This document shows positions 14,688 to 62,577 of a DNA stretch of 64,000 nucleotides, one piece after another; position 1 is the first letter of the stretch; each line of letters starts with the position of its first letter. The stretch comes from a bacterium (GTDB taxonomy: Bacteria; Patescibacteriota; Saccharimonadia; Saccharimonadales; AWTP1-31), in NCBI GenBank assembly GCA_030426125.1, contig JAUHZB010000001.1:26462-90461 (forward strand), read 5' to 3'. The notes below the pieces were generated by a model, which searched no databases, was not told where the DNA came from, and saw nothing but the letters and a program-made list of their open reading frames with translations. Both the position numbers and the translations under genes were made by a program.

Positions 14688-14689
14688 CT

Positions 14690-45182: not shown

Positions 45183-45207
45183 GATTCAATCAAATTTCAC
45201 CTTATAC

Positions 45208-45297
<90 letters not shown>

Positions 45298-45347
45298 TTT
45301 ATTATTACGTTTCTTTTTATCCCTAATCTTATAGTTACATTTATCAG

Positions 45348-46151: not shown

Positions 46152-46631
46152 ATGGCGCGACGTGACCGCGATGAAGATTTATTGATGGAAGATGAGCTAA
46201 CCGCAGCTTTTCTGGGTGATGATGAACCAACTACTAAGGCTCCACCTGCCAAACAACCAGAAGTAGAAGAGCAAATCGAAGAAGAGTGGGATGAAGAAGA
46301 AACAGTACCAGGACAACTGGCTGTAGATGTTTATGAGACAAAAGAGAAGCTAGTTGTAAAAGCTCGAACTGCTGGAGTGAATAAAAGTGAACTAGACGTA
46401 AGTATCGCAGATAATACTCTTAGTATCCGGGGCACCCTATCTGCCGGTAACGAAGATGACGTTGAAAACTACTTTGTTCAAGAATGTTACTGGGGTGAAT
46501 TCTCTAGAAGCATTACTCTACCAGTACCAGTAAAGGAAGAAGAGATTGAAGCTGTTCTAAAAGACGGCGTTCTAACTATTAGCTTCACTAAGCTAAAACA
46601 AGACACCGTTAAGAAGATCCAAGTCCTATAA
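46152..46631 (+). CDS. Hsp20/alpha-crystallin family small heat-shock protein
   Basis: 159 aa; alpha-crystallin domain, C-terminal GVLTI motif. Confidence 0.85.
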   Translation: MARRDRDEDLLMEDELTAAFLGDDEPTTKAPPAKQPEVEEQIEEEWDEEETVPGQLAVDVYETKEKLVVKARTAGVNKSELDVSIADNTLSIRGTLSAGNEDDVENYFVQECYWGEFSRSITLPVPVKEEEIEAVLKDGVLTISFTKLKQDTVKKIQVL

Positions 46632-46761: not shown

Positions 46762-47181
46762 TTATCCGCTTTGGCCAACAAATCGTTCTAGTACGAAACG
46801 TACAATGATCTGGGCAAGTGCTACTACTACAAGGCCAATTACAGCGTATAGAATAGTATTCTTGGCGGCTGTAATGTTAGAACTTTCACCTTGAGAGGTA
46901 ATGTATTTAACACCACCGACAATGATCATTACTACAGCGATGATACCAACTACTGCACTAAATAGGTTAAGGCCTAGGGTTACAGTTTCGTTTACTTGGG
47001 TTCCAGCTGATTCGTCAGTTACACAAGTTCCATCAGCGCCAAGTAATTCACCGTCTGTTCCAGAACAAACACTGTCTTGAAGCTCAAAAGCGGCATTTGC
47101 CACTGGAGCCATTGCAAATGGAGTAACTAGCGCTGCTGAAGCTAGAACTGTTATTAACATTTGTTTAATTGTTTTTATCAT
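46762..47181 (-). CDS. VirB2/TrbC-like T4SS pilin-family protein, paralog 1 (last in array)
   Basis: Signal peptide ...PVANA, Cys pair (CSGTDGELLGADGTC), two C-terminal hydrophobic helices with GGVKYITSQGES...AKNTILYAVIGLVVV motif. Confidence 0.55.
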   Translation of the reverse strand: MIKTIKQMLITVLASAALVTPFAMAPVANAAFELQDSVCSGTDGELLGADGTCVTDESAGTQVNETVTLGLNLFSAVVGIIAVVMIIVGGVKYITSQGESSNITAAKNTILYAVIGLVVVALAQIIVRFVLERFVGQSG

Positions 47182-47254
47182 TTTAAATTTTAACCTTTCT
47201 TTATTCTCTATTGTTTATACCATAACTTGCTTGGGCTTATCAAGTTGTTTGTCC

Positions 47255-47659
47255 TTATGTAAACTGCGTCAATACAAACCTAACAATAATCTGAGCTAGA
47301 GCAACTATTACAAGACCTATAAGGGCATACATCACACTATTTTTTGCTTCGTTTATTTTACCGCTCTCACCCTGTGATGTCATGTACTTTACCCCACCGA
47401 TCATAACCATAACTATGGCTATTATTCCAATAATAGCACTAAATAGATTTAGGCCAGTCTGGATAATACCGTCCACAGAAGTTGAGTCTGGATTTTCGCA
47501 ACCGTCTCCACTAGCCGAACTCACCCCAGCTCCTGCACAAACCGCTTTCTTGGCTGTTTCATCTGCAGCTGAGGCCATTGACGGAAAAAGAGATATTGCA
47601 AACATGCTACCGAAAAACATAATTAAGGCTATAGTGGTTAATTGAATTTTTCTTATCAT
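47255..47659 (-). CDS. VirB2/TrbC-like pilin-family protein, paralog 2
   Basis: Signal ...MASA, Cys pair, GGVKYMTSQGESGKINEAKNSVMYALIGLVIVALAQ motif. Confidence 0.55.
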   Translation of the reverse strand: MIRKIQLTTIALIMFFGSMFAISLFPSMASAADETAKKAVCAGAGVSSASGDGCENPDSTSVDGIIQTGLNLFSAIIGIIAIVMVMIGGVKYMTSQGESGKINEAKNSVMYALIGLVIVALAQIIVRFVLTQFT

Positions 47660-48066
47660 AATCTACTCTGTATAAAATACACTATTGTGCGAGCTAAAAC
47701 CAGTACCACAATACCTACTGCAGTATAAATCAAACCAGTCCTTGCTTTAGTAACTTTTGCGCTATCTCCTGACGACATAATTAGTTGTAGTCCATTGTAC
47801 ATAACCATGACAACAGCGATAATTCCACCGACTGCAGCAACTAGATTAGCGATAGTAGATATCAAATTATCTTCACCAGCTAATAGATCAGTGTCTGTTG
47901 GAGTCTGACATACGGCAGAATCGCTTGCAGATCCAGCAGAACCGTCACGACAACCAGGGAATGGATCAACAGCACTAACAGTATCCATATTCACCAATGA
48001 AAAAGTTAAGAATAAGAAACTTATTAGTGTGAATAGCTGTAGGAACAAAGGAATTTTTTTAATCAT
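47656..48066 (-). CDS. VirB2/TrbC-like pilin-family protein, paralog 3
   Basis: Signal ...VSA, Cys pair, NGLQLIMSSGDSAKVTKARTGLIYTAVGIVVL motif; 4-nt overlap with paralog 2. Confidence 0.5.
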   Translation of the reverse strand: MIKKIPLFLQLFTLISFLFLTFSLVNMDTVSAVDPFPGCRDGSAGSASDSAVCQTPTDTDLLAGEDNLISTIANLVAAVGGIIAVVMVMYNGLQLIMSSGDSAKVTKARTGLIYTAVGIVVLVLARTIVYFIQSRL

Positions 48067-48347
48067 ACACGATTCACCACAAAGTTAAGGATAGTAGAAG
48101 CCGATACTGCCACAGCTAAACCTAGAGCGGCATAAATTATAGACTTTCGTGCCTTGGATAAAGCTTGTGGGTCATCTTGGGCTAACATAAACTTAATGCC
48201 TGATATCATAATAACTATCAGGGAAACTCCACCTATAATTACAAATACTATGTACAAAATTGTCTGAAATGGATCACGTGTTGTTGTATCTATATTTGGC
48301 AGTGGGCTTGTATCCACAGCAAGCAGCCTGGCTAAACTACTAAACAT
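48063..48347 (-). CDS. VirB2/TrbC-like pilin-family protein, paralog 4 (short, 94 aa, no clear signal peptide)
   Basis: ISGIKFMLAQDDPQALSKARKSIIYAALGLAVAV motif; 4-nt overlap with paralog 3. Confidence 0.45.
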   Translation of the reverse strand: MFSSLARLLAVDTSPLPNIDTTTRDPFQTILYIVFVIIGGVSLIVIMISGIKFMLAQDDPQALSKARKSIIYAALGLAVAVSASTILNFVVNRV

Positions 48348-48349
48348 AA

Positions 48350-48739
48350 CTAAAACCTCCCTGCAACATAAACCACAATACCTGATGCCAGAGTCACAAT
48401 AACCACTCCAATTAGAGCATTCATTATAGTAGTCTTAGCATCTTTCACACCCTCAGGTTCACCCTGGCTGGTAATAAATTTAAAACCGCCATAAATGATA
48501 AAGCCAAAGGCCACTAGTCCACCGAATCGAAGCAATATATCGATAATTGCTAAGCCAATTTTTAACAGATCGGCTGGGTTTGAAGCAAAATCTATATCTA
48601 CCTTACAGCTTTCGGTGAAATCCAAATACTTATACCAAGTAGGGAAAATACCAAGGAATAATGAATTCTTGCCACATTCGGGACCTGCTGCGAAAAGAAC
48701 AGGAAGATAACTGTTTAAGCTTGCTATGGTAAGCCACAT
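48350..48739 (-). CDS. VirB2/TrbC-like pilin-family protein, paralog 5
   Basis: Cys pair (CGK...C), GGFKFITSQGEPEGVKDAKTTIMNALIGVVIVTLA motif. Confidence 0.5.
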   Translation of the reverse strand: MWLTIASLNSYLPVLFAAGPECGKNSLFLGIFPTWYKYLDFTESCKVDIDFASNPADLLKIGLAIIDILLRFGGLVAFGFIIYGGFKFITSQGEPEGVKDAKTTIMNALIGVVIVTLASGIVVYVAGRF

Positions 48740-48740
48740 T

Positions 48741-49139
48741 TTATATTACCCCTCCTGGCCACAACCATTGTAGTAACCCTAAGAAAAATATATAAGTAAC
48801 AAGCGCCAATATAGCATTATTTATTTTGCTTTTGGCAGCCGAGACTTTCTGAGGGTCACTACCAGCAGAAGTATACTGAATTCCAGCAATAATTATCATA
48901 GCGGTTACTACTATACCAATGGTGTAGGTCAAGAGCTTTATAGCCGGATCTATTAGTTTCTCGGTAATATCACAGTCTTCAGTGCTATCACACCGACTAA
49001 AGCTTGGTTCTTCGTCAGCAGCTAATACTGTCTGTGAAGGAACAACCGCAACACTTAGCAGAAAGCTTGAAAAAATAGCTAAAAATATTAGTTTTATGTT
49101 TATTAGATTAAATGTTGGTTTTTTGAGTATTGTAAACAT
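48741..49139 (-). CDS. VirB2/TrbC-like pilin-family protein, paralog 6 (first in array)
   Basis: Signal ...VLAA, Cys pair (CDSTEDC), AGIQYTSAGSDPQKVSAAKSKINNAILALV motif. Confidence 0.5.
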   Translation of the reverse strand: MFTILKKPTFNLINIKLIFLAIFSSFLLSVAVVPSQTVLAADEEPSFSRCDSTEDCDITEKLIDPAIKLLTYTIGIVVTAMIIIAGIQYTSAGSDPQKVSAAKSKINNAILALVTYIFFLGLLQWLWPGGVI

Positions 49140-49400
49140 TATGTTTTGGTTTCCTGAACTTAGCAGGTGATAGTAATTACAGGCAGTAATTATACTACTA
49201 ATTCAAATTATACATCAATAAACAATAATTACAGCCAGCAACCCTATATTGGACTTATTGTTTTTCATGGTTTTAGATATGAATCTAGATTTGCGATATT
49301 ACCCTATCAAGACTATAGTAAATGTAAGTCATGTTAAGACAAATTTTATACAGATATTTAAGTATTGAATCAAAACTTAGGTTACGGTGAAAACATTTAA

Positions 49401-52400
49401 ATGAAAAAAATCAATCTAAAATTAATCAACTGGGCATTACTTTTTGTGTTTGCAATACAAATAACACTGCCTGTTATTTTACCCCCAACCAAGGTTAGCG
49501 CAGCAGAAAGTGTCGAAAGCTTAAAATCTAAAGTTAAACACATACAGAAACTCCGAGGACTTCGAAAGTGCATTGACGATAAACTAGCCACTGGAGGTAT
49601 CGGATTAGAAAGTGGTCCATTTACCCTAAAATTTATTGCTGGTAGAGCAGTGAATGCGTACGATACCCCCGTTGGCCATGGTGTTGATACTGGTGATGGT
49701 AAGTGGGACTGCGCTAGCGCGAGTGGCGACAGGGAGAACACTTGGTTCAAATTAATCCTAAAAAATGGTAGCGATAGTGAATACTACTCAGGTTGGAGTA
49801 GTGGCGGCGATAATTCCTATAAATCCGTTGCAAGCAAGAACCTAGCCGAAGAAGGGGGATATCTATACTTTATTAATCGGGATAATTTAGCTTCCCACTC
49901 TGGAGGTGGAAAGCTAACCGAAGGCCCTGCTAAAGGGAAAGTCAAAGATCAGCTAGGTAGAACAATAGCCGTGCTAGAAAGAGACTTAACTCAAGATGAA
50001 AAAGATGCCATGGCTTACCTTAACCTTTCATGGACTTTTGCTGATTCAAATGCCTGCAAAGCTCAGGAAGTTGACGCCAATAGCGGTGGAAAGAAAGTTA
50101 AAATTGGCAACAAATTATTCAGAGTAGGAAATCCTGGTGGTAAAAATTCAGTTGGTTTTGGCTTTTATGGTGATAACGGTCAAGGTATTGGAGATGGTAA
50201 TTTAACCTGTGAGCAAATAGCAGACAGGATGGCTTCCTTGGCTTCATCATATGAAAAAGCCACCGGTGACACATCCACAATACCCGAAGGATCAAACCGC
50301 GCCGTAGAAGCAGATGGCGACACCGAAGGAGACATAGAAGCACAATGCGATATCACCCCGAATCCGATCACTTGGATAATGTGTGCCTTAATTACTGGTT
50401 TTATAGAGGCCATTAACGCTCTTGATGAAGGAGTTACAAACCTACTAAACATTCGCGCCGCTGAATTCTTCGGCGAAGGCCAAGTAGGCGACAGCTTCAA
50501 TAGCGTTTGGGTAAGTGTTCGGACCATAGCTCTAGGTTTCCTGATAATTGTCGCTCTAGTTATGATAATCAGTACAGCTATAGGTGTTGGCCCCTTTGAT
50601 GCCTATACCGTTAAAAAGGTGATGCCTAGATTAGTAGCAGTTATTATATTAATACCGCTATCTTGGTCTATTGTTTATTTCATGATTGACATGACTAGTG
50701 TTATTGGATTTGGTGTGAGAAATCTAATTCAGGCACCTTTCGCTGCAAATATTGAAGGTATTGGCTTCGGTAGTACTGTATCTACAACTGCTGCAACAGG
50801 ACTACTTGTTGGAGGTTTATTCCTTGGATTACCTGGCCTTCTAAGCTTCTTGGTAGGTGGTTTTTTAGCAGTGCTAATTGCATATGTAGTACTTGTTCTT
50901 CGGCAAATATTCATAATACTTCTTGCTGTATTAGCACCCGTCGCACTGGTTGCAGCCATTCTGCCAAATACACAAAAAGCTTGGAAATTTTGGTGGGAAT
51001 CTTTTTGGAAGGCGCTCATAGTATTCCCAATTATTGCGGCATTTATTGCTGCAGGCCGAATATTTGCCCAAGTCGCCGAAACAACACAAGGTGGAGGTGT
51101 AGGTGACCTTATCGCGTTCGTGGCCTACTTTGCTCCGTATTTCCTAATACCTCAGGCCTTCAAAATGGCAGGAGGTCTACTAGGCAACCTAACTGGTGCT
51201 GTTAATGATCGAGGTCGTGGAGCCTTCGATAGACTTCGGAAGTTCCGCCAAGGGCAAATGCAACAGAATATGCAAAAAATTGATGAGGGGTCGAGATTTA
51301 GCGACAGAACTAAACTTGGCAGTAAGGTTAACTCGGGACTCCGCAAAACCAGTAAATTAAATGAGGCTGGTTTTCGACCAAGTAAAATGCGATCAAACAT
51401 CAATTCTGCAATATCGGCACAAGACCTAAGATTAGCCGATGAAAAAGGCGAAAAAGACGATGCAGTCCGTGCAATAATTAATGATGATGATATGCTAGAT
51501 TCATTTAAATTTGATGATACAGATGATCAAATTCGACAAAGACTACTTGATAGTGGAAGATTCGGCGAGGCCGGATCTAAAGAACTCAATGCCGCAGTTG
51601 CAACAGTGCGACGAGCAAAACGTACGGCTAATAGTAGCGTAAGAAGTCAAATTGCTGCCGTTGGTTCAACCGCAACAGGTACGGGAATAAAAACACATGC
51701 TGATATGTATCAAGCTGCCATTGATGCCTCAGATGGTAATCCATCAACCAGGAACGCTGTATTTGCCAAAATGCGTGCTGCGGCTGAACGCGCCGGTAAC
51801 TACTCATTGTCTGGCCCAGGCCATGCAGAATCAGTAGATGCAATGGAAAGCATGGCGAGAGGAGAGTCGGCATCGAGTATTAATGCCCGAATGCTTGCAA
51901 GATCCATGGAGGTACAAGGGGCGGGTAAAATCCTACAAGGAAAACCTACGGATGTTGAAAACTTAACCGCACAACTAGCAACAGACTATCAGTCCGCTAT
52001 GGCTGATGGAGATCTCGATAAAGCAACCTCACTTGCCGCACAAATGAAATCATTGCGAGATGCAGATAACGGAGCATCGCCTGAAAATACTAAACATGTT
52101 AATGCTATGCTTGCAGCTTCAGAGATAGATGAGGGTATGGTCAACCCCGAAACAGGTGCACCTTTGTCGATCGACGAACAATTCGCAAGGAAAATATCCG
52201 GGCGAATGGGCTCTTCGCTAACAACCGAAGTGAAGGACAAGTATGCCACCGAGCTAGCTGCGGAACATCAACGTCGTGTTAATTCTGAAAACATAGTTCG
52301 AGCTAGAAGCGGACAACCACAACTCACTGGAGCTGAGAGTTTAGCAAAATTTGACAAACTCGTAGATGAGACAGCTCTAAACGTCATTAATCAAAGGATT

Positions 52401-52496
52401 CGTACTCGTGCTGGATCGTACGACGTTGGAGGTGGTAATAGGAACGTTCCAGAAGAACTCAGGAGACAACAAGCCTTAAGTCAAGACGATAATTAA
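49401..52496 (+). CDS. VirB6/TrbL-like polytopic T4SS membrane protein with large N-terminal exported and C-terminal soluble domains
   Basis: 1031 aa; signal peptide, then at least 6 consecutive TM helices (residues about 375-610), divergently transcribed from pilin array. Confidence 0.55.
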   Translation: MKKINLKLINWALLFVFAIQITLPVILPPTKVSAAESVESLKSKVKHIQKLRGLRKCIDDKLATGGIGLESGPFTLKFIAGRAVNAYDTPVGHGVDTGDGKWDCASASGDRENTWFKLILKNGSDSEYYSGWSSGGDNSYKSVASKNLAEEGGYLYFINRDNLASHSGGGKLTEGPAKGKVKDQLGRTIAVLERDLTQDEKDAMAYLNLSWTFADSNACKAQEVDANSGGKKVKIGNKLFRVGNPGGKNSVGFGFYGDNGQGIGDGNLTCEQIADRMASLASSYEKATGDTSTIPEGSNRAVEADGDTEGDIEAQCDITPNPITWIMCALITGFIEAINALDEGVTNLLNIRAAEFFGEGQVGDSFNSVWVSVRTIALGFLIIVALVMIISTAIGVGPFDAYTVKKVMPRLVAVIILIPLSWSIVYFMIDMTSVIGFGVRNLIQAPFAANIEGIGFGSTVSTTAATGLLVGGLFLGLPGLLSFLVGGFLAVLIAYVVLVLRQIFIILLAVLAPVALVAAILPNTQKAWKFWWESFWKALIVFPIIAAFIAAGRIFAQVAETTQGGGVGDLIAFVAYFAPYFLIPQAFKMAGGLLGNLTGAVNDRGRGAFDRLRKFRQGQMQQNMQKIDEGSRFSDRTKLGSKVNSGLRKTSKLNEAGFRPSKMRSNINSAISAQDLRLADEKGEKDDAVRAIINDDDMLDSFKFDDTDDQIRQRLLDSGRFGEAGSKELNAAVATVRRAKRTANSSVRSQIAAVGSTATGTGIKTHADMYQAAIDASDGNPSTRNAVFAKMRAAAERAGNYSLSGPGHAESVDAMESMARGESASSINARMLARSMEVQGAGKILQGKPTDVENLTAQLATDYQSAMADGDLDKATSLAAQMKSLRDADNGASPENTKHVNAMLAASEIDEGMVNPETGAPLSIDEQFARKISGRMGSSLTTEVKDKYATELAAEHQRRVNSENIVRARSGQPQLTGAESLAKFDKLVDETALNVINQRIRTRAGSYDVGGGNRNVPEELRRQQALSQDDN

Positions 52497-52521
52497 TGCG
52501 CATTGACATAGTGATATATAT

Positions 52522-53670
52522 GTGATAATATATAAAATAGACATGAAAACAAAAAACCACCCTCCTACAAACACAATCAACTCTAGCCCTGAAACACAAC
52601 CGCAACCTATAGAGATCCAAGAAGAAGAAGTTGCCTATAGTGGCTTGCGTCGTGAACTTTTTCAACGTGTCTCGGATGCAGCCTCAAACAGCATAGAAAA
52701 AACCTCGCAAACAGACCATGTAATCAGGACTGCTCCAAGTGGTGCAGAAAGAACCAGAGGCTTCTATAGCGCTCCTGAGCCTAACGACGTTAAGCCGGTC
52801 GGAATTTTCGAAAAAGCAGCAAGCCATATCAGACAAAGACAAGCTGCAAAAAAGCGTCGCCTAGAGTATGAACGTCGGCGGCTGCACAGTAGTCACGGAG
52901 GAGTCCCAGAGGACACAATAGACTACTCTAATCCAGAAAAACCCAAAAACCCAGTTTTTACGCTGGAAAGAGAATTCTCTCCAACAGCCCCAAGCGTCAA
53001 AAAAAGTGTTGAAAAATTAGAAAAAAACAGAGAAGATCAAGGGGTACCTAAAGCCAGCAAACTAGGTGTAAAGCCGATGAATGACTATGGTGAAGTCTAC
53101 AAAAAAAGAAGATCTTGGAGAGAGCGTAGAATAGAAAAAACCCAAACCAGAAAAGATCGGCGATTAAAAAAAGCTATTGATAGGCTAGACAGAAAACTCG
53201 AACGGGGCGAAGACGGTAAGACCTTGCATGGTAAATATCGAGATAAAAAAATTCATTTACTTGAATCTCTTAAACAATATTCCGATAAAAGAGTCGCTCA
53301 TGAAGACAGTAAACTTGTTAAAGTTGCACGGCAGAAAAACAAGCAAGAGTTAGCTAAATTTCTTGCAACGCACCCACCACTAGCTATGATGAGTCGAGCT
53401 GAAGCACAACAGCTGTCCGATTTACAGCGAGCAGGCGAAGCTCGTGTACTAGAAGCTGAAATGGAACTATGGATGAGGAGGTCGGGCGCAATTTCTGAAA
53501 ATGAGCGTAGGAAGTTAATTAGACAGCGTCGAGAAGCATCCTTTAGGGGAGATCAGCATAATCGACGATTGATGAAAACCGCAGCAGGCAGGCAACAACT
53601 AAAGCGACAATTCAATATAGACAATGGTGTATACGGAAGATTGCCCGAAGAAGACCAAAGTAGGAAATAA
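52522..53670 (+). CDS. hypothetical highly basic K/R/E-rich coiled-coil protein within T4SS locus
   Basis: 382 aa, runs of KKRR / RRRL, no TM; possibly nucleic-acid binding (inference only). Confidence 0.4.
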   Translation: MIIYKIDMKTKNHPPTNTINSSPETQPQPIEIQEEEVAYSGLRRELFQRVSDAASNSIEKTSQTDHVIRTAPSGAERTRGFYSAPEPNDVKPVGIFEKAASHIRQRQAAKKRRLEYERRRLHSSHGGVPEDTIDYSNPEKPKNPVFTLEREFSPTAPSVKKSVEKLEKNREDQGVPKASKLGVKPMNDYGEVYKKRRSWRERRIEKTQTRKDRRLKKAIDRLDRKLERGEDGKTLHGKYRDKKIHLLESLKQYSDKRVAHEDSKLVKVARQKNKQELAKFLATHPPLAMMSRAEAQQLSDLQRAGEARVLEAEMELWMRRSGAISENERRKLIRQRREASFRGDQHNRRLMKTAAGRQQLKRQFNIDNGVYGRLPEEDQSRK

Positions 53671-53717
53671 TTTAACAATACTGTACACAGCGACAATTAC
53701 TTTGTACCATATAGGTT

Positions 53718-54782
53718 ATGGCAACCTACAAAGTACTCCAGGATATAGAAGCTGAAGACACCTTTCTAGGTCCTCTCACTCTAAAACAGTTCATCTTCGG
53801 GGCTGTGGCTATTGTTAGCTCATATGTTGCATTTTTGTTAATGACCAAAGGTCTATGGGTGTTAGCTATCCCACTACTGCCGGTAATCTTTGTGCTTGGC
53901 TTTCTAGCTTTCCCGTGGGGAAGAGATCAACCAACCGAAACATGGTTGCTAGCAAAAATTCGCTTTATGTTTAAACCCAGAATTCGTATCTGGAATCAGA
54001 CTGGTATTCAAGAACTAGTAAAGATTACGGCGCCACCACCAAAACTAGAATATACCGGAGATAACCTATCACAAACTGAGGTAAAAAGTCGCCTTAAAGC
54101 CTTGGCAGAAACCATCGACAGTCGTGGCTGGGTGGTTAAAAACGTCTCCGCTCAACAATACGCCAGCCCTAGCTACGGTCTGCTCTCTAAAAAGAATCAA
54201 TCTGATAGATTGGTTGAAGTATCTACTTTACCAAAAACCGAATCTCCAATAAATGACAATGGTATCGAAGACATGTTTGATAGCAGTAGGGCCGATCAAC
54301 TAACTAGTCAAATAGATCAAAGAAATCAAGATCACCGCAAGGAAACTGTCAGTCAGCTAAAAAGTGCCGCCAAAAAAGACAGCCAACCAGCCCCAGATCT
54401 ATGGTTCATGAATGAAGGTCCAGCCCCCAGCAAACCCGGCATGGCTAGCTTTGGAACCTCTACTGTCGCTCCTGGACAAAGTAGCTCTTCACTACCTAAT
54501 AGTTTTAGGTCAAAAAAACAGACTAAAGATCCAGACGAAAAAGCCATCTCTGAAAAACTAAAAGCTAAAAAAGATAAACCCGGGCAAGCATTCAGGAATC
54601 ACAAAACCATAGTTCCAGCCGACCAACAAAAACCATTAACACAACCGATGACAAGCGTGCCTGACCCTGTTACAATTGAACTAGCCAGAAACAACGATCG
54701 CAACATCGACAGTTTAGCTAGGGAGAGTACTAGAGCCCATAAACCACCTGAAGATGATGAAGTAGTTGTATCTCTGCATTAG
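53718..54782 (+). CDS. PrgI/VirB3-like two-TM T4SS protein with long S/P/K-rich C-terminal extension
   Basis: N-terminus DTFLGPLTLKQFIFGAVAIVSSYVAF (cf. PrgI-family F-GLT-RQ motif) followed by second TM; located immediately upstream of VirB4. Confidence 0.5.
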   Translation: MATYKVLQDIEAEDTFLGPLTLKQFIFGAVAIVSSYVAFLLMTKGLWVLAIPLLPVIFVLGFLAFPWGRDQPTETWLLAKIRFMFKPRIRIWNQTGIQELVKITAPPPKLEYTGDNLSQTEVKSRLKALAETIDSRGWVVKNVSAQQYASPSYGLLSKKNQSDRLVEVSTLPKTESPINDNGIEDMFDSSRADQLTSQIDQRNQDHRKETVSQLKSAAKKDSQPAPDLWFMNEGPAPSKPGMASFGTSTVAPGQSSSSLPNSFRSKKQTKDPDEKAISEKLKAKKDKPGQAFRNHKTIVPADQQKPLTQPMTSVPDPVTIELARNNDRNIDSLARESTRAHKPPEDDEVVVSLH

Positions 54783-54805
54783 AATAAAGTGGGTAAAACA
54801 GATAT

Positions 54806-55822
54806 ATGAATCCAACGCAGAACCAACCAGCTTCGGCTATGCCGCCTCAAGGACCTGGCGCTAACCCCTACGCAAATAATGCTCTACCAAACACCGCACC
54901 TCCAGCCGGAGGTATCCCAAACAACCAAGGTGTATCTTCTCAGGCTAATCCAATGCCTGGATCAGTTCCTTATACTGCCGCCTCCTTGCCGGGCAATAGT
55001 TTTAACCCACAATACAATCAGGCTCAACAACAGAACCAACAACCAAGTCAGCAACCTGGCGTTTCCCAGCCAAAAACAGTAGCTCCAAAATCTAACCCCA
55101 ACAGTACTCAAAACACTTTAAACATTGCCGAAATACGCGATGGTATCGTAATAATGAACGATGGTAGTTTTCGTTCTGTAGTGATGGTTAAGTCGGTAAA
55201 CTTCGATCTAATGAGCCCTCAGGAGCAGGAAGCTGTAGAGTATAGCTACCAAGGTTTTCTAAACTCGCTATATTTTCCAATTCAAATAAATATGCGTTCT
55301 CAAAAAGTTGATCTATCTCCGTATATCGAAAAATTAGACAAGATCAGAACCGAGCACGACAATATGCTTTTAGCTCTGCTAATGGAAGATTACATTAACT
55401 TCATGGGAGACCTCAGTCAGCAAACCAACATTATGGATAAAAAGTTCTACGTTGTTATACCCTACTTCCCAACCGTGGACATCCAAAATGCTCTTAGTAA
55501 CAGCAAGGGTCTAGTTAAGGGTCTCGGGGCACTATTTAGCAAAAGTCCTCAAACCCAAGTTACTATCAACGAAGTTGATCTAAACAAAGCTAAGGACGAA
55601 CTCAGAAACCGCGTACAAGCAGTCCTAGGTGGACTAATGCAATGTGGGGTACAAGGCTTACCGCTAGACACTCAAGAACTTATTGAGCTCTACTATGACA
55701 GCTACAACCCTGACACCGCCACCCGCCAGCAGCTAAAGAACTTCGACAACCTCACTGCACCTGTAATAACCAAGGGTCAAGGTCAAGCCCATAATCCAAA
55801 CCTAGACAGGGAGATGAACTAA
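54806..55822 (+). CDS. VirB4-like ATPase, N-terminal segment (Q/N/P-rich extension plus VirB4 N-domain), separate ORF
   Basis: Residues about 110-338: LNIAEIRDGIVIMNDGSFRSVVMVKSVNFDLMSPQEQEAV resembles the N-terminus of Gram-positive VirB4/TraE proteins; stops in TAATG overlapping next ORF. Confidence 0.5.
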   Translation: MNPTQNQPASAMPPQGPGANPYANNALPNTAPPAGGIPNNQGVSSQANPMPGSVPYTAASLPGNSFNPQYNQAQQQNQQPSQQPGVSQPKTVAPKSNPNSTQNTLNIAEIRDGIVIMNDGSFRSVVMVKSVNFDLMSPQEQEAVEYSYQGFLNSLYFPIQINMRSQKVDLSPYIEKLDKIRTEHDNMLLALLMEDYINFMGDLSQQTNIMDKKFYVVIPYFPTVDIQNALSNSKGLVKGLGALFSKSPQTQVTINEVDLNKAKDELRNRVQAVLGGLMQCGVQGLPLDTQELIELYYDSYNPDTATRQQLKNFDNLTAPVITKGQGQAHNPNLDREMN

Positions 55823-57738
55823 TGCTCGGTAAAAAGAAAAAAGTAGAGAATGATCCAGTAGCTCTTGCCCAACAACAAAGAGCCCGCGAGGAACAAGAAG
55901 TAAACGCTGCCTTTAATAAAGGTGTCACTGCTCTTCGTGACTTTATTGCTCCAAGCTCCATCGAATACCAAAACAACTTCTTCCACCTAGGAACTAGGAT
56001 TGCCAGAACCTTCTATGTTTTTGGTTATCCTCGGCAAATCTTCACCGGCTGGCTTAGTAGTATGATTAACCTCGATGAAGTCCTGGATCTATCTATCTAC
56101 ATCTACCCTGTAGAGAGTCAGGTGGTGCTAGAAAATCTTCGGAAGAAGGTAACCCAACTTGAAGCTGGACTTCAGATTGATGCTGAAAAGGGAAGAACCA
56201 GAGATCCAGGTAAGCAAGCAGCAATTCAAGATGCCGAAGAAATGCGCGACAAACTACAAGTGGGTGAAGAGAGATTCTTTAGATTTGGCCTATACTTTAC
56301 AATTTATGCTTCCAGTATGGATGAAATGGAGTTCGTAACCCATAAGATTGAATCAATACTCGGTCAGCAGCTAGTCTACTCCAAGGTAGCCACCTCTCAG
56401 CAAGAACAAGGTTTTAACAGCACCGTCCCCCAATTCACCGACCAGCTTCAAATCAGGCGCAACATGAACACCGGTGCTATTAGTACTAGCTTCCCATTTA
56501 CCAGCGCTGATCTTAGTCAAGACAACGGTATTTTATACGGCATCAACATGCACAACTCTGGTCTGGTAATATTCGATCGGTTTACCCTAGAAAACAGCAA
56601 CTCAGTGGTCTTCGCTAAGTCTGGTGCTGGTAAGTCATTTGCTGTAAAACTAGAAGCTCTTCGAAGCCTAATGTTTGGCACCGAGATTTTCATAATTGAC
56701 CCCGAAAACGAATACCAGAGAATGGCTGAAGCGGTTGGGGGAGCCTACGTTAGACTTAGTCTTAGTTCGGCCACTCGAATTAATCCATTTGACCTGCCAA
56801 AAGTAGTAGACACCGAAGAAGCTGACAATGCTCTCAGAAGCAACATAATTACCCTTCACGGTCTCTTGCGACTGATGATGGGTGGTGCCCAGGCTCAGAT
56901 GGCTGGCAGTGGAACAGCTGCCATGCCAGCCCTAAATCCAGTAGAAGAATCCGATCTTGATGCAGCCTTAATTGAAACTTACGCTAAAGCTGGAATCACC
57001 AACGATCCACTAACCCATAACTCCCAACCACCGACCATAATGGACCTATACGACACCTTACTTCATATGGGTGGTACCGGACCACAATTGGCTCAACGAA
57101 TCAGAAAATATACCACCGGTACCTTTGCTGGGATTTTCAGCCAACAATCCAATACAAACATAAACAACCCGCTAGTGGTCTTTAATATTCGTGACCTAGA
57201 AGATGAGCTCCGACCAGTAGCTATGTATATAGTCCTAAACTACATCTGGAACAAAACTAAAAGTGACCAGAAAAGACGCATGCTTGTCATTGACGAGGCC
57301 TGGCAGTTAATGAAATACGAAGATTCAGCCAACTTTATGTTTAGCCTTGCTAAACGAGCTAGGAAATATAACCTAGGCATCACCACCATCAGCCAAGACG
57401 TTGAAGACTTCATGGGTAGCCGAATGGGAAGGGCGATTGTAGCTAACGCTAGTATGCAACTACTACTAAAACAATCTTCTTCAGCTGTCGACGTATTAGC
57501 CGATGTCTTCAAGCTTACTAGTGAAGAAAAGAAAAGACTTAGCCAATTCCCAGTCGGTCAAGGTTTGTTCTTCGCTGGCCAAAGCCACGTGCATGTTCAA
57601 ATCCAAGCTAGCCCTACTGAGATGAATCTAATAACCACTAATCCTGACCAGATGCAAGAAATTAGTCAAAGTGGAGACCTAGACAAACCACAAGGCACTA
57701 TTGATTTACAAAACCGCTTAACACCAGGATCAGGATAA
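55822..57738 (+). CDS. virB4: VirB4/TraE/CagE-family T4SS ATPase, C-terminal segment
   Basis: Walker A AKSGAGKS, Walker B/DEAW (RMLVIDEAWQLM), upstream ...IEYQNNFFHLGTRIARTFYVFGYP conserved VirB4 region. Confidence 0.8.
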   Translation: MLGKKKKVENDPVALAQQQRAREEQEVNAAFNKGVTALRDFIAPSSIEYQNNFFHLGTRIARTFYVFGYPRQIFTGWLSSMINLDEVLDLSIYIYPVESQVVLENLRKKVTQLEAGLQIDAEKGRTRDPGKQAAIQDAEEMRDKLQVGEERFFRFGLYFTIYASSMDEMEFVTHKIESILGQQLVYSKVATSQQEQGFNSTVPQFTDQLQIRRNMNTGAISTSFPFTSADLSQDNGILYGINMHNSGLVIFDRFTLENSNSVVFAKSGAGKSFAVKLEALRSLMFGTEIFIIDPENEYQRMAEAVGGAYVRLSLSSATRINPFDLPKVVDTEEADNALRSNIITLHGLLRLMMGGAQAQMAGSGTAAMPALNPVEESDLDAALIETYAKAGITNDPLTHNSQPPTIMDLYDTLLHMGGTGPQLAQRIRKYTTGTFAGIFSQQSNTNINNPLVVFNIRDLEDELRPVAMYIVLNYIWNKTKSDQKRRMLVIDEAWQLMKYEDSANFMFSLAKRARKYNLGITTISQDVEDFMGSRMGRAIVANASMQLLLKQSSSAVDVLADVFKLTSEEKKRLSQFPVGQGLFFAGQSHVHVQIQASPTEMNLITTNPDQMQEISQSGDLDKPQGTIDLQNRLTPGSG

Positions 57739-57754
57739 GGTTGAGGTATAGCTT

Positions 57755-60736
57755 GTGAGTACAGACCTAAAAGACAAGCCTTCCGGCATATACGATGACG
57801 AACAAAATAGCCACATAGATCGCATCCGTGATCTAGAAGCTCAAGAGGCAGCTGAAGCTCAAGAAGGCACCCATCAAACCAACGAAGATGGAAGCCCGCT
57901 AAGCGGATCCGCGATTAAAGCTAGTGAGTCAAAAAAACCAGCTTCCGGCAAAGATACTACAGATAAATCCTCAACTCCAAAATCCGGGGGATTATACAAC
58001 CCGGATGGAGACAAAAGCACTTCTAGATTCGGAAAACTAAAGTCCAAGTTGGGCAATATTGAAAACAAACGAAGAAAACTACTAGTTGTTGGTGGTAGTA
58101 TTGGTGGAGTCACCGCATTTATGCTAATACTGATATTACTAGCATCATTGAAGCTACCTCACTTCGGCCAAGTTTTAACAGCCACTGGCTACGCCAGATT
58201 AAATGGAATCATGCGTGAGCGAATGGCCCAAAACCTATTCGATAACGCTGCCACTACCGGTGATGGCCAGATATCTCTGCGTGCTAGAACGATGCGCGAA
58301 AGAATAACCGGCCAAAATTTAAACAAACAGATAACTAAACTAGGTCAGGAAAATAGGCTTATATTTGAATTGGACGGAGAAAATGTAACCGGCATCAAGC
58401 TTCCACAAGAAGGTAAAACCATATCTCTTGATACAGTTTCACAGGAACTATTCGATAAAGATTATTCGGAGATAAAAAGAATCCGAGGAGTTAGAGAGCG
58501 TATGACAGTTCGAGCAGAATACGTTAAGCAAGTAAAAGCTGGTGTGAGCGAAGGACTAGCGACTGAAACCCGGGCAGTGAGAGGAAGAGCTACCGCAACT
58601 GCTCTAAAAAACAGCGGATTTAAATATAATCGCTGGGCCAACAAAGCAAGGGAGTATTTAGGTAAAACACCGAAAGAAGCAGCTATAAAAAATACCGTTG
58701 AGACCATTGAACAGGTTGGAGGTGATAAGTTTGTTGAAACGGGAATAAAACAATATGACGATTTATCCGAAGAGCTCAAAAAAAATGGCAGTCGAATCGA
58801 GAAGTTTATGGAAAAAAACGGTGGGGTATTCGATAAAGAAGCCTATGTAAAGCAAGTGAGCACTGACTTCACCACTGGTCAAAAAATTACGGAAGCAGCC
58901 AATAAAGTGGGTGTTGGCCTGATGATAGGAACACTAGCTTGTATGGCTAACCAAGCATTTTCTAATGTAGATGAAATAGCCGAAAATAACGAACTGGCGG
59001 CCTCAAGAGCTGCTGCCGCATTACCAGCGGCTCAAGATCAGCAAATACGCGGTGAGGCTAACGATGAGGCGATTGGCGCAGAAGCAAACACCCTAACAGG
59101 TGCTGAAAATTCACAGTACTACCAATACGCAACCGGGCAAGAAATTACCGCAGAAGAGGTTGAGGTACCCAATACTAAACCAAAATACGGTAATATGGCA
59201 GATATTATCTCTCTTGCTACCAGTCCAACAACTTTTATACCTGGAGGCTTTGCCATACCAGAGCCAGCTAAAGACGCCATTAACAATGGTTTTTGTTCTG
59301 CCCTACTAGACCCCAAGGGTGCTGTCGTTGCTGCAGCTGCCGAAATAGTAGTAACTGCAGCTGCCTCGGTATTTACCGGAGGTGGTGCAGCTGTTGCCAG
59401 GGAAACCGGTGGTAGAGGCGCACTACTAGTAATATCTAGAGAGTTAGCTAGCGCAACACTAGCGACCGGAAGAGGTGTTGTTAGTAAGAAAAGCGCCGCA
59501 ACACTCCTAGGCTTTGCCGCCTTCCAGCAGGGACTAGAAATGGTCACCAGGCAGTTAGCTGGAGTTGAATTCATGGGGGGTGAAACCGGTCCACAAAAAT
59601 TCGAGATAGCAGCAGTTGGTAATAATGTACTACAATCAAAGAGAATGCGTGGGATAGGTGGTGCTCCACTAACCAATGAAGAGGCTAAGCAAGTAGACCA
59701 ACCACTCATAAAACAAAAAACTGCTGAATACCAAAACCAGAATGTTTTTGCTAGATATCTATCAATTGAAAATCCATATTCATTAATTGGAAAACTAAGC
59801 GCTATTGTACCTGGGGATATTGTTAGCCTAAAACAATCTAGCTTAACTATGGTTAATAGCTTCGCTTCAGTATTTAATATAAAAAATATACTTAATCCTG
59901 TAATGTCAATTGCGGGCCTAAACACCAAAGCTCAGGCAGTGGATAACTACAACCCGTATTATGACGTCACTCAATGGGGCTTCTCGCCATCCGAACTAAA
60001 GAAAATGCGCGAAGACCCCACCTACAACTACTACACCAATCTTGATTACATTAGCGAAGAAACTATAGCCGAATACGACGAAAAATATGGTGATTGCTTT
60101 GACACATCTAAGACCAATTATGAAGTCGAGAAAATGTCAAAATGCAGCAAAGATGAGCTAAGGGGAAACGATCAAATCTTCCGCTATAGGTTAACTTTAT
60201 TAGATGAAGAAACCGTATCGATGCTAGAACAAAAACCAGAAGATATAGGAAAAGACCCTGTAGATGATGGTGGTCAAAACATTAACTCAACTGGAAAAAT
60301 TGCGCCAAGTGGTGGAAGTGGATCTGTAGGTATTGAACAAACCTCACCAATCCCCGGAACCAACAAACGCATCCACACAGACGTTCTTCCTCAATTCCTA
60401 GACATGATTGATGCTGCCCGAGCAGATGGCATAGACCTAATGCCTATTAGTTCAGCTTGGAGAGATCCACAGAAACAAATAGAACTAAGGAAGAGTAACT
60501 GCCCAGATTGGCGTAATTCACCATCCGGGGATTGCAATCCACCAACAGCCAGACCCGGAACCTCAAAACATGAAAGTGGTAGGGCGGTAGATTTTAGCAA
60601 TATGTGCTTCTCTAGAAACGGATCAAGCTCATGTAAGGGAAATCCTAGGTGGGAATGGCTCAAAGCAAACGCCGCAACCTACGGATTCTACCCGTTAAAA
60701 AGTGAGGCCTGGCACTGGTCAACCACAGGTACCTAA
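57755..60736 (+). CDS. large N-terminally anchored protein with C-terminal M15 (LAS/VanY-like) zinc D-Ala-D-Ala carboxypeptidase domain
   Basis: Single TM near residue 120; C-terminal SKHESGRAVDF (H-x6-D zinc site) and EAWHWS motifs typical of peptidase M15/VanY. Confidence 0.6.
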   Translation: MSTDLKDKPSGIYDDEQNSHIDRIRDLEAQEAAEAQEGTHQTNEDGSPLSGSAIKASESKKPASGKDTTDKSSTPKSGGLYNPDGDKSTSRFGKLKSKLGNIENKRRKLLVVGGSIGGVTAFMLILILLASLKLPHFGQVLTATGYARLNGIMRERMAQNLFDNAATTGDGQISLRARTMRERITGQNLNKQITKLGQENRLIFELDGENVTGIKLPQEGKTISLDTVSQELFDKDYSEIKRIRGVRERMTVRAEYVKQVKAGVSEGLATETRAVRGRATATALKNSGFKYNRWANKAREYLGKTPKEAAIKNTVETIEQVGGDKFVETGIKQYDDLSEELKKNGSRIEKFMEKNGGVFDKEAYVKQVSTDFTTGQKITEAANKVGVGLMIGTLACMANQAFSNVDEIAENNELAASRAAAALPAAQDQQIRGEANDEAIGAEANTLTGAENSQYYQYATGQEITAEEVEVPNTKPKYGNMADIISLATSPTTFIPGGFAIPEPAKDAINNGFCSALLDPKGAVVAAAAEIVVTAAASVFTGGGAAVARETGGRGALLVISRELASATLATGRGVVSKKSAATLLGFAAFQQGLEMVTRQLAGVEFMGGETGPQKFEIAAVGNNVLQSKRMRGIGGAPLTNEEAKQVDQPLIKQKTAEYQNQNVFARYLSIENPYSLIGKLSAIVPGDIVSLKQSSLTMVNSFASVFNIKNILNPVMSIAGLNTKAQAVDNYNPYYDVTQWGFSPSELKKMREDPTYNYYTNLDYISEETIAEYDEKYGDCFDTSKTNYEVEKMSKCSKDELRGNDQIFRYRLTLLDEETVSMLEQKPEDIGKDPVDDGGQNINSTGKIAPSGGSGSVGIEQTSPIPGTNKRIHTDVLPQFLDMIDAARADGIDLMPISSAWRDPQKQIELRKSNCPDWRNSPSGDCNPPTARPGTSKHESGRAVDFSNMCFSRNGSSSCKGNPRWEWLKANAATYGFYPLKSEAWHWSTTGT

Positions 60737-60739
60737 ACT

Positions 60740-62566
60740 ATGAAAAATATTCCGCTACTTAAACCATTATTAAACTACACACTAGGATTTCTAATAATTC
60801 TAATTCTAGTATTTATTAATGTAGCTAACGCCTACGCAGTAAGCGTGGAAGAAATATTTACGCCATATTATAATCCAAACTTAAATAACTGCCAGCCCAC
60901 TAGTACTGGATTCACTAAAGTGCCTGACGGTGGAAAACTTTACGTGCTAGGTGATTCAATCACGGTTGGAATCGAAGACACCCTCAGGAATAAACTGCAA
61001 GAAAAAGACATAACCCCCTACATAAATGCATCTGTATCTAGGTCATGGAACGGAGCTGGAAATAGCGTTGTATCAACTCAAGGAACACCACTTCCCGGCA
61101 AAGACGCCATTAAAGAAGATGAAGCAAAGCAGGCTGGAGTTGTGTCGGGGGCTAGCGGTATAGTTATCGCCCTTGGCACTAACGGTGGCGCCTCCAGCAA
61201 CCCAATAGAAAGCGCTATTGATGAAATTAGAAGAATAAACTCCAGCGCTCCTATATGGTGGGTAAATACCGTTGGATCTTCAGCTTGGCCAAACAATATC
61301 AGTAACCTCGGATCATTCAATGAACAGCTAGTCGATCTATCCGCTACAAAAAACTTTCAAATTATTAATTGGTTTTCCGCGGTCAATCCAACCGGAGACC
61401 CCACAACAACCCCCACCAACGACCCAACACGCCTGCTAAGTGACGGCATCCATCCTAACGCTGCTGGTATTCAGAAGCTATCTACTAAAATTGTTACAGA
61501 TATTAGTGGTGGCGACTCCAGTGGCTCAACCACCGCTAGTGAAACCGGGGTTGCATGTTGCTCTGGGGCAGGAACTACAGTAGCCGGGAACAACAACGAA
61601 GAAAAAGTATGGAATTATCTTGTTGGTAACCTACAGCTTAGCGCTATTCAAGCTGCTGGAATTATGGGTAATATTCAACAGGAATCGGGATTCAGCACCA
61701 CAATAGTTAACAAAAGCAGTGGTGCTTATGGACTAATTCAGTGGCTTGGCGGTAGAAAAACCGCCCTGCAAAATTTTGCCAGGGGGCAGGGAAAGGATAT
61801 GGGTGACATATCGGTACAATTAGAATTCATGAAACAAGAGCTGGAATCTGACTACTATAGACGTCGAGTATTCGACCCAATAAAAGCCTCGCAGTCCCTA
61901 GAGGAAAGCACTAGAATATGGCTGGAAAAATTCGAAATTCCTTGTACACCAGGGTCGGCTGCTTGCGCGGAGGAAATGAATGTACGTTTACCGTTCGCTC
62001 AAAACTGGCTAACTAGGTTTGGTTCAAACACTGCCACCGCAGTAGGCAACTCACCCTCATCAACTTGCGCATCGCAAGAAGGTGGCACAGGGGTTAGCGC
62101 CGATGGTTTCGTCTTCCCGCTCAGGACTAATCAGCAAACTATTAAATCTAAGGGTTGGTGCTTCGAAAGTCAATCTAACTGCCACCATGACTACAACGCA
62201 GCAGATATTTTTGCCCCAACCGGAACCGAGGTTATTGCAGCTAGAGGTGGGCAAGTTATCCTTGTTAAATCAGGCCCAACTCGAATAGCTATCAAGGCGG
62301 ATGATGGCAATATATACTACTACACACATATGGGCGCTGGTACCGCAGTCGTCAGTAAAGGACAAACCGTTGCAGCGGGTGCTACCCTCGGTAGGGTAGG
62401 CACAAAAGCCGATGCCGCCGGAACACCCGAACACCTACATATTGATATATTGCCAGGTGATAGATATGACAATAGGCCAGGATGTGCTGGATCAGCTTGC
62501 AGTAGTTTACCCTTCATTAATATCCAACCACCACTCACCGAAGCATTTAAGAATCTACCGGAGTAA
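60740..62566 (+). CDS. tri-domain cell-wall hydrolase: SGNH/GDSL esterase, lysozyme-like (phage-tail-lysozyme/SLT-type) and M23 (LytM) peptidase
   Basis: LYVLGDSITVG (GDS block I) and ALGTNG; AIQAAGIMGNIQQESGF...GAYGLIQW (catalytic Glu region of CwlT/phage tail lysozyme-type muramidases); C-terminal HMGAG...TPEHLHIDI (M23 HxxxD ... HxH). Confidence 0.65.
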   Translation: MKNIPLLKPLLNYTLGFLIILILVFINVANAYAVSVEEIFTPYYNPNLNNCQPTSTGFTKVPDGGKLYVLGDSITVGIEDTLRNKLQEKDITPYINASVSRSWNGAGNSVVSTQGTPLPGKDAIKEDEAKQAGVVSGASGIVIALGTNGGASSNPIESAIDEIRRINSSAPIWWVNTVGSSAWPNNISNLGSFNEQLVDLSATKNFQIINWFSAVNPTGDPTTTPTNDPTRLLSDGIHPNAAGIQKLSTKIVTDISGGDSSGSTTASETGVACCSGAGTTVAGNNNEEKVWNYLVGNLQLSAIQAAGIMGNIQQESGFSTTIVNKSSGAYGLIQWLGGRKTALQNFARGQGKDMGDISVQLEFMKQELESDYYRRRVFDPIKASQSLEESTRIWLEKFEIPCTPGSAACAEEMNVRLPFAQNWLTRFGSNTATAVGNSPSSTCASQEGGTGVSADGFVFPLRTNQQTIKSKGWCFESQSNCHHDYNAADIFAPTGTEVIAARGGQVILVKSGPTRIAIKADDGNIYYYTHMGAGTAVVSKGQTVAAGATLGRVGTKADAAGTPEHLHIDILPGDRYDNRPGCAGSACSSLPFINIQPPLTEAFKNLPE

Positions 62567-62577
62567 AGGAGGAGTTT

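Follow-up and report, generated by a model that had tools for sequence, protein, structure and literature searches.

What does a type IV secretion system (T4SS) serve for when neither a coupling protein nor a relaxase accompanies it, and has such a system been seen before? These questions are raised by a block of genes at positions 46762-62566 of a 64,000-nucleotide stretch of Saccharimonadales DNA (contig JAUHZB010000001.1), here called the window. The list of open reading frames (ORFs) and profile searches reveal six genes for VirB2-like pilins on the minus strand and a divergent machinery operon on the plus strand. Our analysis makes it highly probable that the block is a chromosomal, vertically inherited, origin-proximal saccharibacterial T4SS, gene-for-gene orthologous to the essential genes SEML1_0006-0019 of “Candidatus Southlakia epibionticum” ML1.

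A preliminary description of this DNA had interpreted the block as a Gram-positive-type T4SS-like locus without coupling protein or relaxase. That interpretation is supported overall, and every component that it listed is present. It had also called the block unannotated, and the novelty implied by this is unsupported, because the locus type has already been published as a cluster essential by transposon sequencing (Tn-seq) (PMC10633639), in a phylum-wide survey (PMC12102498), and in a review (PMC12857230). The window locus is a further example of this published system and adds no new kind. The system class itself matters as the first T4SS reported to be essential for its carrier and as the only monoderm-type T4SS with an array of VirB2-like pilins. 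The 2025 review likewise ranks it as the first T4SS that its own bearer cannot do without, with speculation about a pilus conduit for signals or uptake (PMC12857230), while a 2024 perspective calls its role “completely unknown” (PMC11665869).

The closest functional reference is the “apparent T4SS (SEML1_0006-0019)” of ML1, described by Wang et al. in Cell in 2023, which is essential by Tn-seq, pilins included, and has no recognizable coupling or relaxase proteins; the supplementary gene map places Hsp20, ComF, and tRNA-Ser on one side of it and recF-dnaN-dnaA on the other (PMC10633639). Compared by annotation, size, and domain only, not by sequence alignment, the window block is collinear with this cluster in gene order, sizes, and domains. 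The synteny comparison with a cultivated saccharibacterial T4SS locus, which the preliminary description had proposed, thus yields gene-for-gene collinearity. Both loci have six pilins with a short one at the same relative position (103 aa in ML1, 94 aa in the window), PrgI, a TrsD-sized protein (293 aa in ML1), a VirB4 of about 610 to 640 aa, a protein of about 1,000 to 1,100 aa with a C-terminal M15/DD-peptidase, and a phage-tail lysozyme protein of about 600 to 640 aa, and both lack a coupling protein and a relaxase. Hydrolase 1 is the counterpart of SEML1_0007, which has a C-terminal DD-peptidase fold, and hydrolase 2 is that of SEML1_0006. ML1 differs in having two large VirB6-like proteins (0011 and 0013) that flank a nonessential NTF2-like protein (0012), whereas the window has one VirB6-like protein and, in the same region, an unrelated basic soluble protein. 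The lysozyme protein carries glucosaminidase and cysteine-protease modules in ML1 but SGNH and M23 modules in the window, and two small exported proteins of ML1 (0004 and 0005) contrast with a 514-aa anchored propeller protein in the window. These differences are variations in accessory slots around the same core.

A scan of species-representative genomes recovered at least 590 related loci, and the best 80 of them were used for comparison. Almost all of these 80 come from Saccharibacteria or Saccharimonadales metagenome-assembled genomes, a taxonomy that bears out the saccharibacterial origin suggested earlier. Identity to the window protein is highest for VirB4 (81 to 88%) and TrsD (62 to 79%), and lower for PrgI (31 to 56%), the pilins (27 to 73%), the VirB6-like protein (24 to 50%), and the hydrolases (22 to 52%). 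The conserved gene order runs from ComF (-) and Hsp20 (+) through the pilins (-), the VirB6-like gene (+), a variable slot, PrgI, TrsD, and VirB4 to two large envelope proteins, a variable gene, and recF (-), dnaN (-), and dnaA (-). In 58 of the 59 loci with enough flank, dnaN lies on the minus strand 5.7 to 9.8 kb downstream of virB4, and in 44 of 48 loci the pilins and the VirB6-like gene precede virB4. Because VirB4 and TrsD identity is high and the same origin-proximal site is occupied across species, the locus is consistent with a chromosomal location and vertical inheritance.

Within environmental Saccharimonadales, these comparisons show a fixed template, made up of VirB4 in two genes, PrgI, one VirB6-like protein, pilins of six types in constant order, and an origin-adjacent site. 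The extracellular accessories differ between species; these are the modules of the hydrolases, the propeller protein, and whichever gene fills the slot before prgI. Conservation falls from the cytoplasmic core to the surface parts. The contrast between template and accessories marks the parts likely to face the host and gives comparative handles for work in cultivated strains.

The downstream flank was read from a public Logan contig (L001, 17 kb), which is 100% identical to window positions 50740-64000 and reaches 3.3 kb further. It has recF, dnaN, a 309-nt gap, and dnaA on the strand opposite to the operon. The public record annotates a gene of 102 aa in the gap (L001 positions 15649-15957), and several relatives have ORFs of 95 to 110 aa there; the gap is nevertheless probably the replication origin (oriC) and not a gene, because half of the one-mismatch DnaA-box matches in the 16.6-kb locus (3 of 6) fall within it. 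Some 2.3 kb separate the probable oriC from the operon end.

Genes for mobility were sought in the block and on both sides of it. No recombinase, relaxase, or VirD4 family was matched at an E value of ≤0.001 among the 48 ORFs (133 to 849 aa) outside the block, and profile scans gave no relaxase match among the operon genes either. No coupling ATPase of the VirD4/TcpA type was found in the window and the adjoining 3.3 kb, where VirB4 is the sole P-loop transfer ATPase. Searches for flanking direct repeats, att sites, and oriT-like elements returned only short matches at chance level, with no notable inverted repeats, and GC content, which shows no marked shift, does not mark the block as an island. 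The remainder of the window is housekeeping in nature (ArgRS, GroEL, Mur ligase, ValRS, TsaD, DinB, DHFR, MsrB, and others). The claim that coupling protein, relaxase, and recombinase are absent from the block and its flanks therefore holds for the scanned ORFs, and it also holds in the 3.3 kb beyond the 64-kb window, where the preliminary description had allowed for a standard conjugative element: recF, dnaN, and dnaA are found immediately downstream, and no relaxase or coupling protein.

On the upstream side, comFC and the pilin array are separated by an Hsp20 gene (46152-46631, +), which has the same place in ML1 and was scored essential there. In 36 of the related loci, Hsp20 was detected directly ahead of the array, with 70 to 95% identity; it may be a chaperone of the pilins or a mere neighbor. 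Beside comFC there is a small tRNA cluster, again as in ML1, with two tRNA-Ser genes (45090-45182 and 45208-45297) and a tRNA-Arg gene (44210-44286). A 107-aa ORF (45028-45351, +) overlaps both tRNA-Ser genes and is almost certainly spurious.

The pilin region (46762-49139) consists of six closely packed minus-strand ORFs of 94 to 139 aa, in which the start of pilin 3 and the end of pilin 4 overlap by 4 nt and the gene of pilin 1 is the most distant from the divergent promoter region. The plus-strand operon comprises eight genes with intergenic gaps of at most 48 nt. The preliminary description had ended the block at 62566 and missed the eighth, co-oriented gene, which begins 12 nt further on. 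Promoter-like hexamers are present in the divergent intergenic region on both strands (49218-49189, -; 49291-49319, +). As promoter and terminator scans gave chance counts (35 hexamers across the region versus 34.5 expected), we can only infer that this region has promoter function.

Table 1. Genes and intergenic region of the T4SS-like locus, in window coordinates
Feature	Positions	Strand	Length and evidence
Pilin 1	46762..47181	-	139 aa; VirB2-like, signal peptide, two-helix hairpin; PF18895, E 5e-14
Pilin 2	47255..47659	-	134 aa; PF18895, E 2.5e-15; paralogue of pilin 1, 49% identity
Pilin 3	47656..48066	-	136 aa; PF18895, E 1.4e-12
Pilin 4	48063..48347	-	94 aa; PF18895, E 1.2e-12; short form without N-terminal hydrophobic leader
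Pilin 5	48350..48739	-	129 aa; PF18895, E 6.7e-9
Pilin 6	48741..49139	-	132 aa; PF18895, E 3.3e-8; first gene of the pilin operon
Divergent intergenic region	49140..49400		261 nt, AT-rich; presumed site of both promoters
Extended VirB6-like polytopic protein	49401..52496	+	1,031 aa; transmembrane scan, fold ranking
Basic soluble protein	52522..53670	+	382 aa if the first start codon is used; annotated elsewhere with 375 aa
PrgI/VirB3-like protein	53718..54782	+	354 aa; PF12666, E 2.2e-11, residues 5-91; 44.5 bits (cut-off 27)
TrsD-like protein	54806..55822	+	338 aa; NF041427 TrsD, E 1.6e-6; precomputed PF26593 TraC-like match
VirB4 ATPase	55822..57738	+	638 aa; P-loop_TraG and AAA_10; without the extreme N-terminal domain
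Hydrolase 1	57755..60736	+	993 aa; C-terminal VanY/M15 peptidase, PF02557, E 6e-14, residues 871-989
Hydrolase 2	60740..62566	+	608 aa, membrane-anchored; SGNH PF13472, phage-tail lysozyme PF18013 (E 7e-34), M23 PF01551
Eighth operon gene	62578..64000 (window end)	+	514 aa in full in contig L001

The motor of the system is encoded by two genes. VirB4 exceeds the cut-off of the CD1110-type equivalog model NF045971 (351.7 bits; cut-off, 325) over model positions 182-733 of 752, its Walker A (at 265) and Walker B (at 487) motifs are intact, and its closest solved structure is the VirB4 C-terminal domain in PDB 4ag5 (E value, 2e-47). The TrsD-like protein, which gave no significant match to solved structures, has a Q/P/N-rich N terminus followed by a domain homologous to the first ~100 to 170 positions of VirB4 models. 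The two proteins tile one canonical VirB4, because they cover consecutive, nonoverlapping positions in three such models: 2-103 and 182-733 in the CD1110 model, 5-167 and 249-734 in TIGR00929, and 92-234 and 292-893 in the Mbov_0397 model (NF045975) for the TrsD-like protein and VirB4, respectively. The trsD-like stop and the virB4 start overlap by 1 nt (TAATG). The two ORFs are separate in each of the 80 related loci, and 46 of these share the 1-nt overlap. A frameshifted or pseudogenized VirB4 was considered and rejected, as every relative retains both ORFs in coupled form and the Walker motifs are intact. The earlier label “VirB4 (split)” was thus right in homology but not as a sign of a broken gene: the split is a conserved ancestral two-gene arrangement of TrsD and VirB4. 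Such a pair has been described for pGO1 and for Patescibacteria (PMC12102498).

Upstream of this pair, the PrgI/VirB3-like protein named in the preliminary description stands, with its PF12666 match above the cut-off; it has two transmembrane helices (residues 25-64) and then a low-complexity tail of about 260 aa that has no domain match. The designation as Gram-positive type is likewise sustained, since the ATPase finds its best models and its best structure among VirB4s of Firmicutes or Mollicutes (CD1110, Mbov_0397, and PDB 4ag5). Profile searches, proposed earlier as a check on the whole block, thus assign the VirB4 and PrgI families but leave the VirB6-like protein with no Pfam or NCBIfam match.

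This 1,031-aa protein had been described as VirB6/TrbL-like and polytopic. It is polytopic, and the label VirB6 comes from the weaker evidence of the fold. Besides a signal or anchor segment, the protein has some 290 aa in an extracytoplasmic domain, a core in the membrane (about 320-620), and helical repeats in its C-terminal domain (670-1010); residues 320-620 are the part conserved among 21 homologues. A local Pfam search gave no match even at an E value of 10, and of four homologues scanned against Pfam at that threshold, one gave a weak TrbL match (E value, 0.009); homologues carry a precomputed PF19590 match. Because sequence searches gave no family, we relied on fold ranking. An AlphaFold2 model built on the 21 homologues (predicted local distance difference test score [pLDDT], 72.9) was compared with 350,542 PDB chains, and the top five were TrwI/VirB6 of R388, with probabilities of 0.77 to 0.99 but E values of 0.1 to 0.35 and target-normalized template modeling scores of 0.30 to 0.42. 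We thus call the protein VirB6-like with moderate confidence.

The slot between this gene and prgI is occupied by the protein that the preliminary description had called K/R-rich and basic, which its charge count bears out (85 K/R versus 56 D/E; net charge, +29); it has no transmembrane segment. A word-indexed search returned a single homologue, and an exhaustive HMMER scan of 1.84 billion representatives returned 20. A hidden Markov model of the family finds members in 3 of 81 loci, every one directly upstream of prgI. In the closest relative, this slot is taken by a 427-aa ORF that shows no similarity to the protein. The sporadic occurrence and the unrelated ORF of the relative mark it as a locus-specific accessory.

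The six-gene pilin array reported earlier is secure, as all six proteins exceed the gathering threshold of the Pfam family T4SS_pilin (PF18895) with 33.9 to 56.7 bits (cut-off, 26.6), and all also give sub-threshold TrbC/VirB2 matches. Common to their C termini is a two-helix hairpin whose loop, G..K(Y/F)..SQGE(S/P)..AK, is conserved, and all but pilin 4 begin with a hydrophobic leader that is stronger in some than in others. In alignment, pilins 2 to 6 are 23 to 49% identical to pilin 1. The best NCBIfam match for all six is NF045849, a pilin-like protein of the Mycoplasma integrated conjugative element (ICE), at 26 to 40 bits against a cut-off of 40, with pilin 2 scoring 40.2 bits. Small VirB2-like proteins beside VirB4 are therefore not wholly foreign to monoderm-type systems. 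Together with the match of VirB4 and its TrsD-like partner to the Mycoplasma ICE VirB4 model NF045975, this hints at a pilin-plus-VirB4 pairing in Mollicute ICEs.

The array has six genes in the window and in 28 of the 33 related loci with both flanks visible, and its positions can be told apart. For pilin 1, 790 of 812 comparisons (97%) placed the best match in another locus at the corresponding position, and the figures are 705 of 812 for pilin 4 (87%), all 812 for pilin 5 (100%), and 784 of 812 for pilin 6 (97%); the pilins at positions 2 and 3 are relatives of the one at position 1. Position 4 is also short in the relatives (median, 99 aa). The six positions are thus largely orthologous between species. 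Because of this orthology, and because all six ML1 pilins are essential, the pilins probably have distinct fixed roles and are not interchangeable variants.

Pfam domains confirm the two multidomain peptidoglycan hydrolases of the preliminary description. Hydrolase 1 is anchored by a transmembrane segment (residues 109-127) and has a large uncharacterized ectodomain. Among nine relatives of hydrolase 2 that were examined, seven keep the phage-tail lysozyme domain, one has only M23, and one has only Amidase_3. The partners of the lysozyme core are C39-like, M23, CHAP, or VanY peptidases, and some of the proteins have an N-terminal SGNH domain, as in the window, or an Amidase_3 domain. The second hydrolase thus exchanges its catalytic modules between species around a mostly retained lysozyme core. 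In its AlphaFold2 model (pLDDT, 72), the 514-aa product of the eighth gene has a transmembrane helix at the N terminus and an ectodomain made of a beta-sandwich and a beta-propeller, and comparison of the model with the PDB gave generic beta-propeller matches only, with no functional lead. By tblastn, 10 of the 80 loci have a homologue, and wherever its place was mapped, it directly follows the second hydrolase.

How does this locus compare with known T4SSs? According to the survey by Quinonero-Coronel et al., published in Microb Genom in 2025, Patescibacteria have a VirB4 clade related to the mating pair formation class FATA (MPF-FATA), together with PrgI and VirB6; TrsD adjoins VirB4 in 1,664 cases, 441 pilin arrays have 2 to 11 genes, relaxases are rare and occur in a few Patescibacteria genomes, and the loci are found in proximity to dnaA/dnaN (PMC12102498). 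The window agrees in its MPF-FATA-related VirB4, adjacent TrsD, PrgI-type VirB3, and pilin array, with the VirB6-like protein as a putative VirB6 homologue, as well as in the replacement of VirB1 by noncanonical hydrolases, the lack of a relaxase, and the location near dnaA/dnaN. Identity within arrays averages 25% in the survey, with a maximum of 54%, compared with the 23 to 49% to pilin 1 in the window, and we see no substantive difference between the window and the class. The VirB4 probably belongs to the Patescibacteria clade, judged by its 81 to 88% identity to the related loci and by the CD1110 model, its best curated one. In the text of the survey that we consulted, pilin arrays are read as possible versatility toward different hosts, with no mention of positional orthology (PMC12102498), whereas the largely orthologous positions found here point to fixed, distinct roles. 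In the papers on the system that we consulted, we did not find the positional orthology of the pilins, the module swaps of the hydrolase, the basic-protein family, or the homology of the pilins to NF045849.

Likeness to MPF-FATA systems extends beyond the VirB4, which passes the equivalog cut-off for CD1110 of CTn2. The separation of TrsD and VirB4 matches TrsD/TrsE of pGO1, PrgI is shared with the PrgH-PrgL system of pCF10, the membrane-anchored multidomain wall hydrolases resemble PrgK and TraG, and the pilin-like protein of the Mycoplasma ICE (Mbov_0395/0397) is the family nearest to all six pilins. Unlike the conjugative MPF-FATA systems, the window locus is not carried by a mobile element and has no relaxase, coupling protein, oriT, or PrgB-type adhesin, no VirB8-like PrgL was recognized in it, it has a six-gene pilin array, and ML1, the single species tested, cannot grow without the saccharibacterial system. 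With the diderm VirB/D4 systems (VirB of A. tumefaciens and Trw of R388) it shares VirB2-like pilins, VirB3, VirB4, and a VirB6-like fold with TrwI as the top match, but it lacks the outer membrane core VirB7/9/10, VirB5, VirB11, and VirD4, its VirB4 is split, and its VirB6-like protein is greatly extended (1,031 aa).

These parts show that the operon encodes a monoderm-type, MPF-FATA-related translocon of the cytoplasmic membrane, with the extended VirB6-like protein as its putative channel, PrgI/VirB3, and a translationally coupled two-gene VirB4. VirB4/TrsD, docked to a platform of PrgI and the VirB6-like protein, would power the assembly of a heteromeric VirB2-type filament or short conduit, and the anchored hydrolases would open the wall of the epibiont itself and probably that of the host bacterium as well. 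The apparatus would then be a contact-dependent conduit between epibiont and host and not a conjugation machine. As to the direction of transport and the cargo, which may be export of effectors or import of host molecules, we lean slightly toward a conduit for host exploitation, because the system is essential in ML1 while comEC and comF are not.

A more specific version is compatible with this essentiality, with the dispensability of ComEC and ComF, and with speculations in PMC11665869 and PMC12857230. In such a “feeding T4SS,” the fixed, nonredundant set of six pilins and the reshuffled hydrolases would build a heteromeric tube that breaches the host peptidoglycan and imports host macromolecules, for example RNA, nucleotides, or lipids, without a coupling protein, with the basic protein as a lineage-specific adaptor for cytoplasmic cargo or nucleic acid handling. 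We regard this version as conceivable but doubtful.

Several points weigh against our interpretation of the block. The essentiality is extrapolated from a single cultivated relative, ML1, by Tn-seq. A pilus of these pilins is still a prediction for Saccharibacteria, and for another cultivated parasite, strain OT8, a 2026 preprint goes no further than tubular structures that “may be” T4SS pili. Sequence evidence for VirB6 is weak, and the fold evidence is a top rank with E values of 0.1 to 0.35, no VirB8-like component was identified in the locus, and the action of the hydrolases on the host wall is suggested solely by their modular variability. Furthermore, many VirD4-like genes in the survey lie at a distance from virB4 (PMC12102498), and because our view covers about 67 kb of a contig of at least 290 kb, a distal VirD4-like gene is possible.

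Could the block instead be an ICE or the remnant of one, with its relaxase, coupling protein, and integrase outside the window? The ATPase is most similar to VirB4s of ICEs and plasmids of Firmicutes and Mollicutes, tRNA genes lie 1.5 to 2.5 kb upstream of the block, and a few Patescibacteria genomes do have relaxases according to the survey (PMC12102498). However, dozens of species, and ML1 with them, have the block at one chromosomal site, with Hsp20/ComF/tRNA-Ser on one side and recF-dnaN-dnaA on the other, the latter three genes follow immediately downstream, and core proteins that are 81 to 88% identical across species are consistent with vertical descent. Neither a recombinase nor a relaxase was found among the tested ORFs of the window, and there are no flanking direct repeats and no marked shift in GC content. 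We consider an ICE extremely unlikely and reject it on the conserved chromosomal site and the lack of mobility genes among the scanned ORFs.

Two further explanations concern the use of a chromosomal system. A ComB-like system could import host DNA as a source of nucleotides with the help of the adjacent comFC, a conserved neighbor that was detected in 25 loci, each time close to where the retrieved flank ends on the upstream side; ComB of H. pylori offers a precedent (PMC11665869), and the locus has no relaxase or coupling protein. Against this, comFC is transcribed separately, with hsp20 between it and the pilins, and competence in ML1 depends on type IV pili and ComEC. In that strain, moreover, comEC (PMC12857230) and comF (SEML1_0021) are dispensable while the T4SS genes are essential, which makes DNA uptake through ComF/ComEC quite unlikely as the essential role. 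It is also unlikely that the structure is mainly an adhesion organelle whose pilins and propeller protein attach the epibiont to its host with nothing translocated. Six surface-exposed pilins and a membrane-anchored beta-sandwich/propeller protein would suit attachment, as would the fast evolution of the surface parts (27 to 73% identity for the pilins and 24 to 50% for the VirB6-like protein, versus 81 to 88% for VirB4). Yet adhesion in Saccharibacteria has already been assigned to type IV pili and dedicated adhesins (PMC12857230, PMC11665869), and attachment alone needs neither a VirB6 channel protein nor four peptidoglycan-degrading or -modifying modules.

Elsewhere in the window, three consecutive minus-strand genes (2384-8236) encode probable surface proteins: one of 618 aa with Big_5 and GLUG domains, one of 487 aa with no Pfam match, and one of 471 aa with PD40 repeats and Big_9. 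They could be adhesin candidates, in view of the adhesins that are essential in ML1. A small lipid head-group module is formed by three consecutive genes at 13408-15214 (+), whose products are a CDP-alcohol phosphatidyltransferase, a protein with a PHP domain, and a CarS-like protein of the CDP-archaeol synthase family (PF01864; E value, 2e-28), the last with a family name of archaeal type. A 483-aa protein (33123-34574, -) that matches the Pup-ligase family PafA/Dop along its entire length (PF03136; E value, 8e-27) represents a pupylation-type enzyme in a reduced saccharibacterial genome. Finally, two paralogues of the Ham1 family (noncanonical NTP pyrophosphatase) are encoded at most 4 kb apart (37705-38271, +; 41938-42498, -), near the gene for a DinB-type polymerase (36431-37687).

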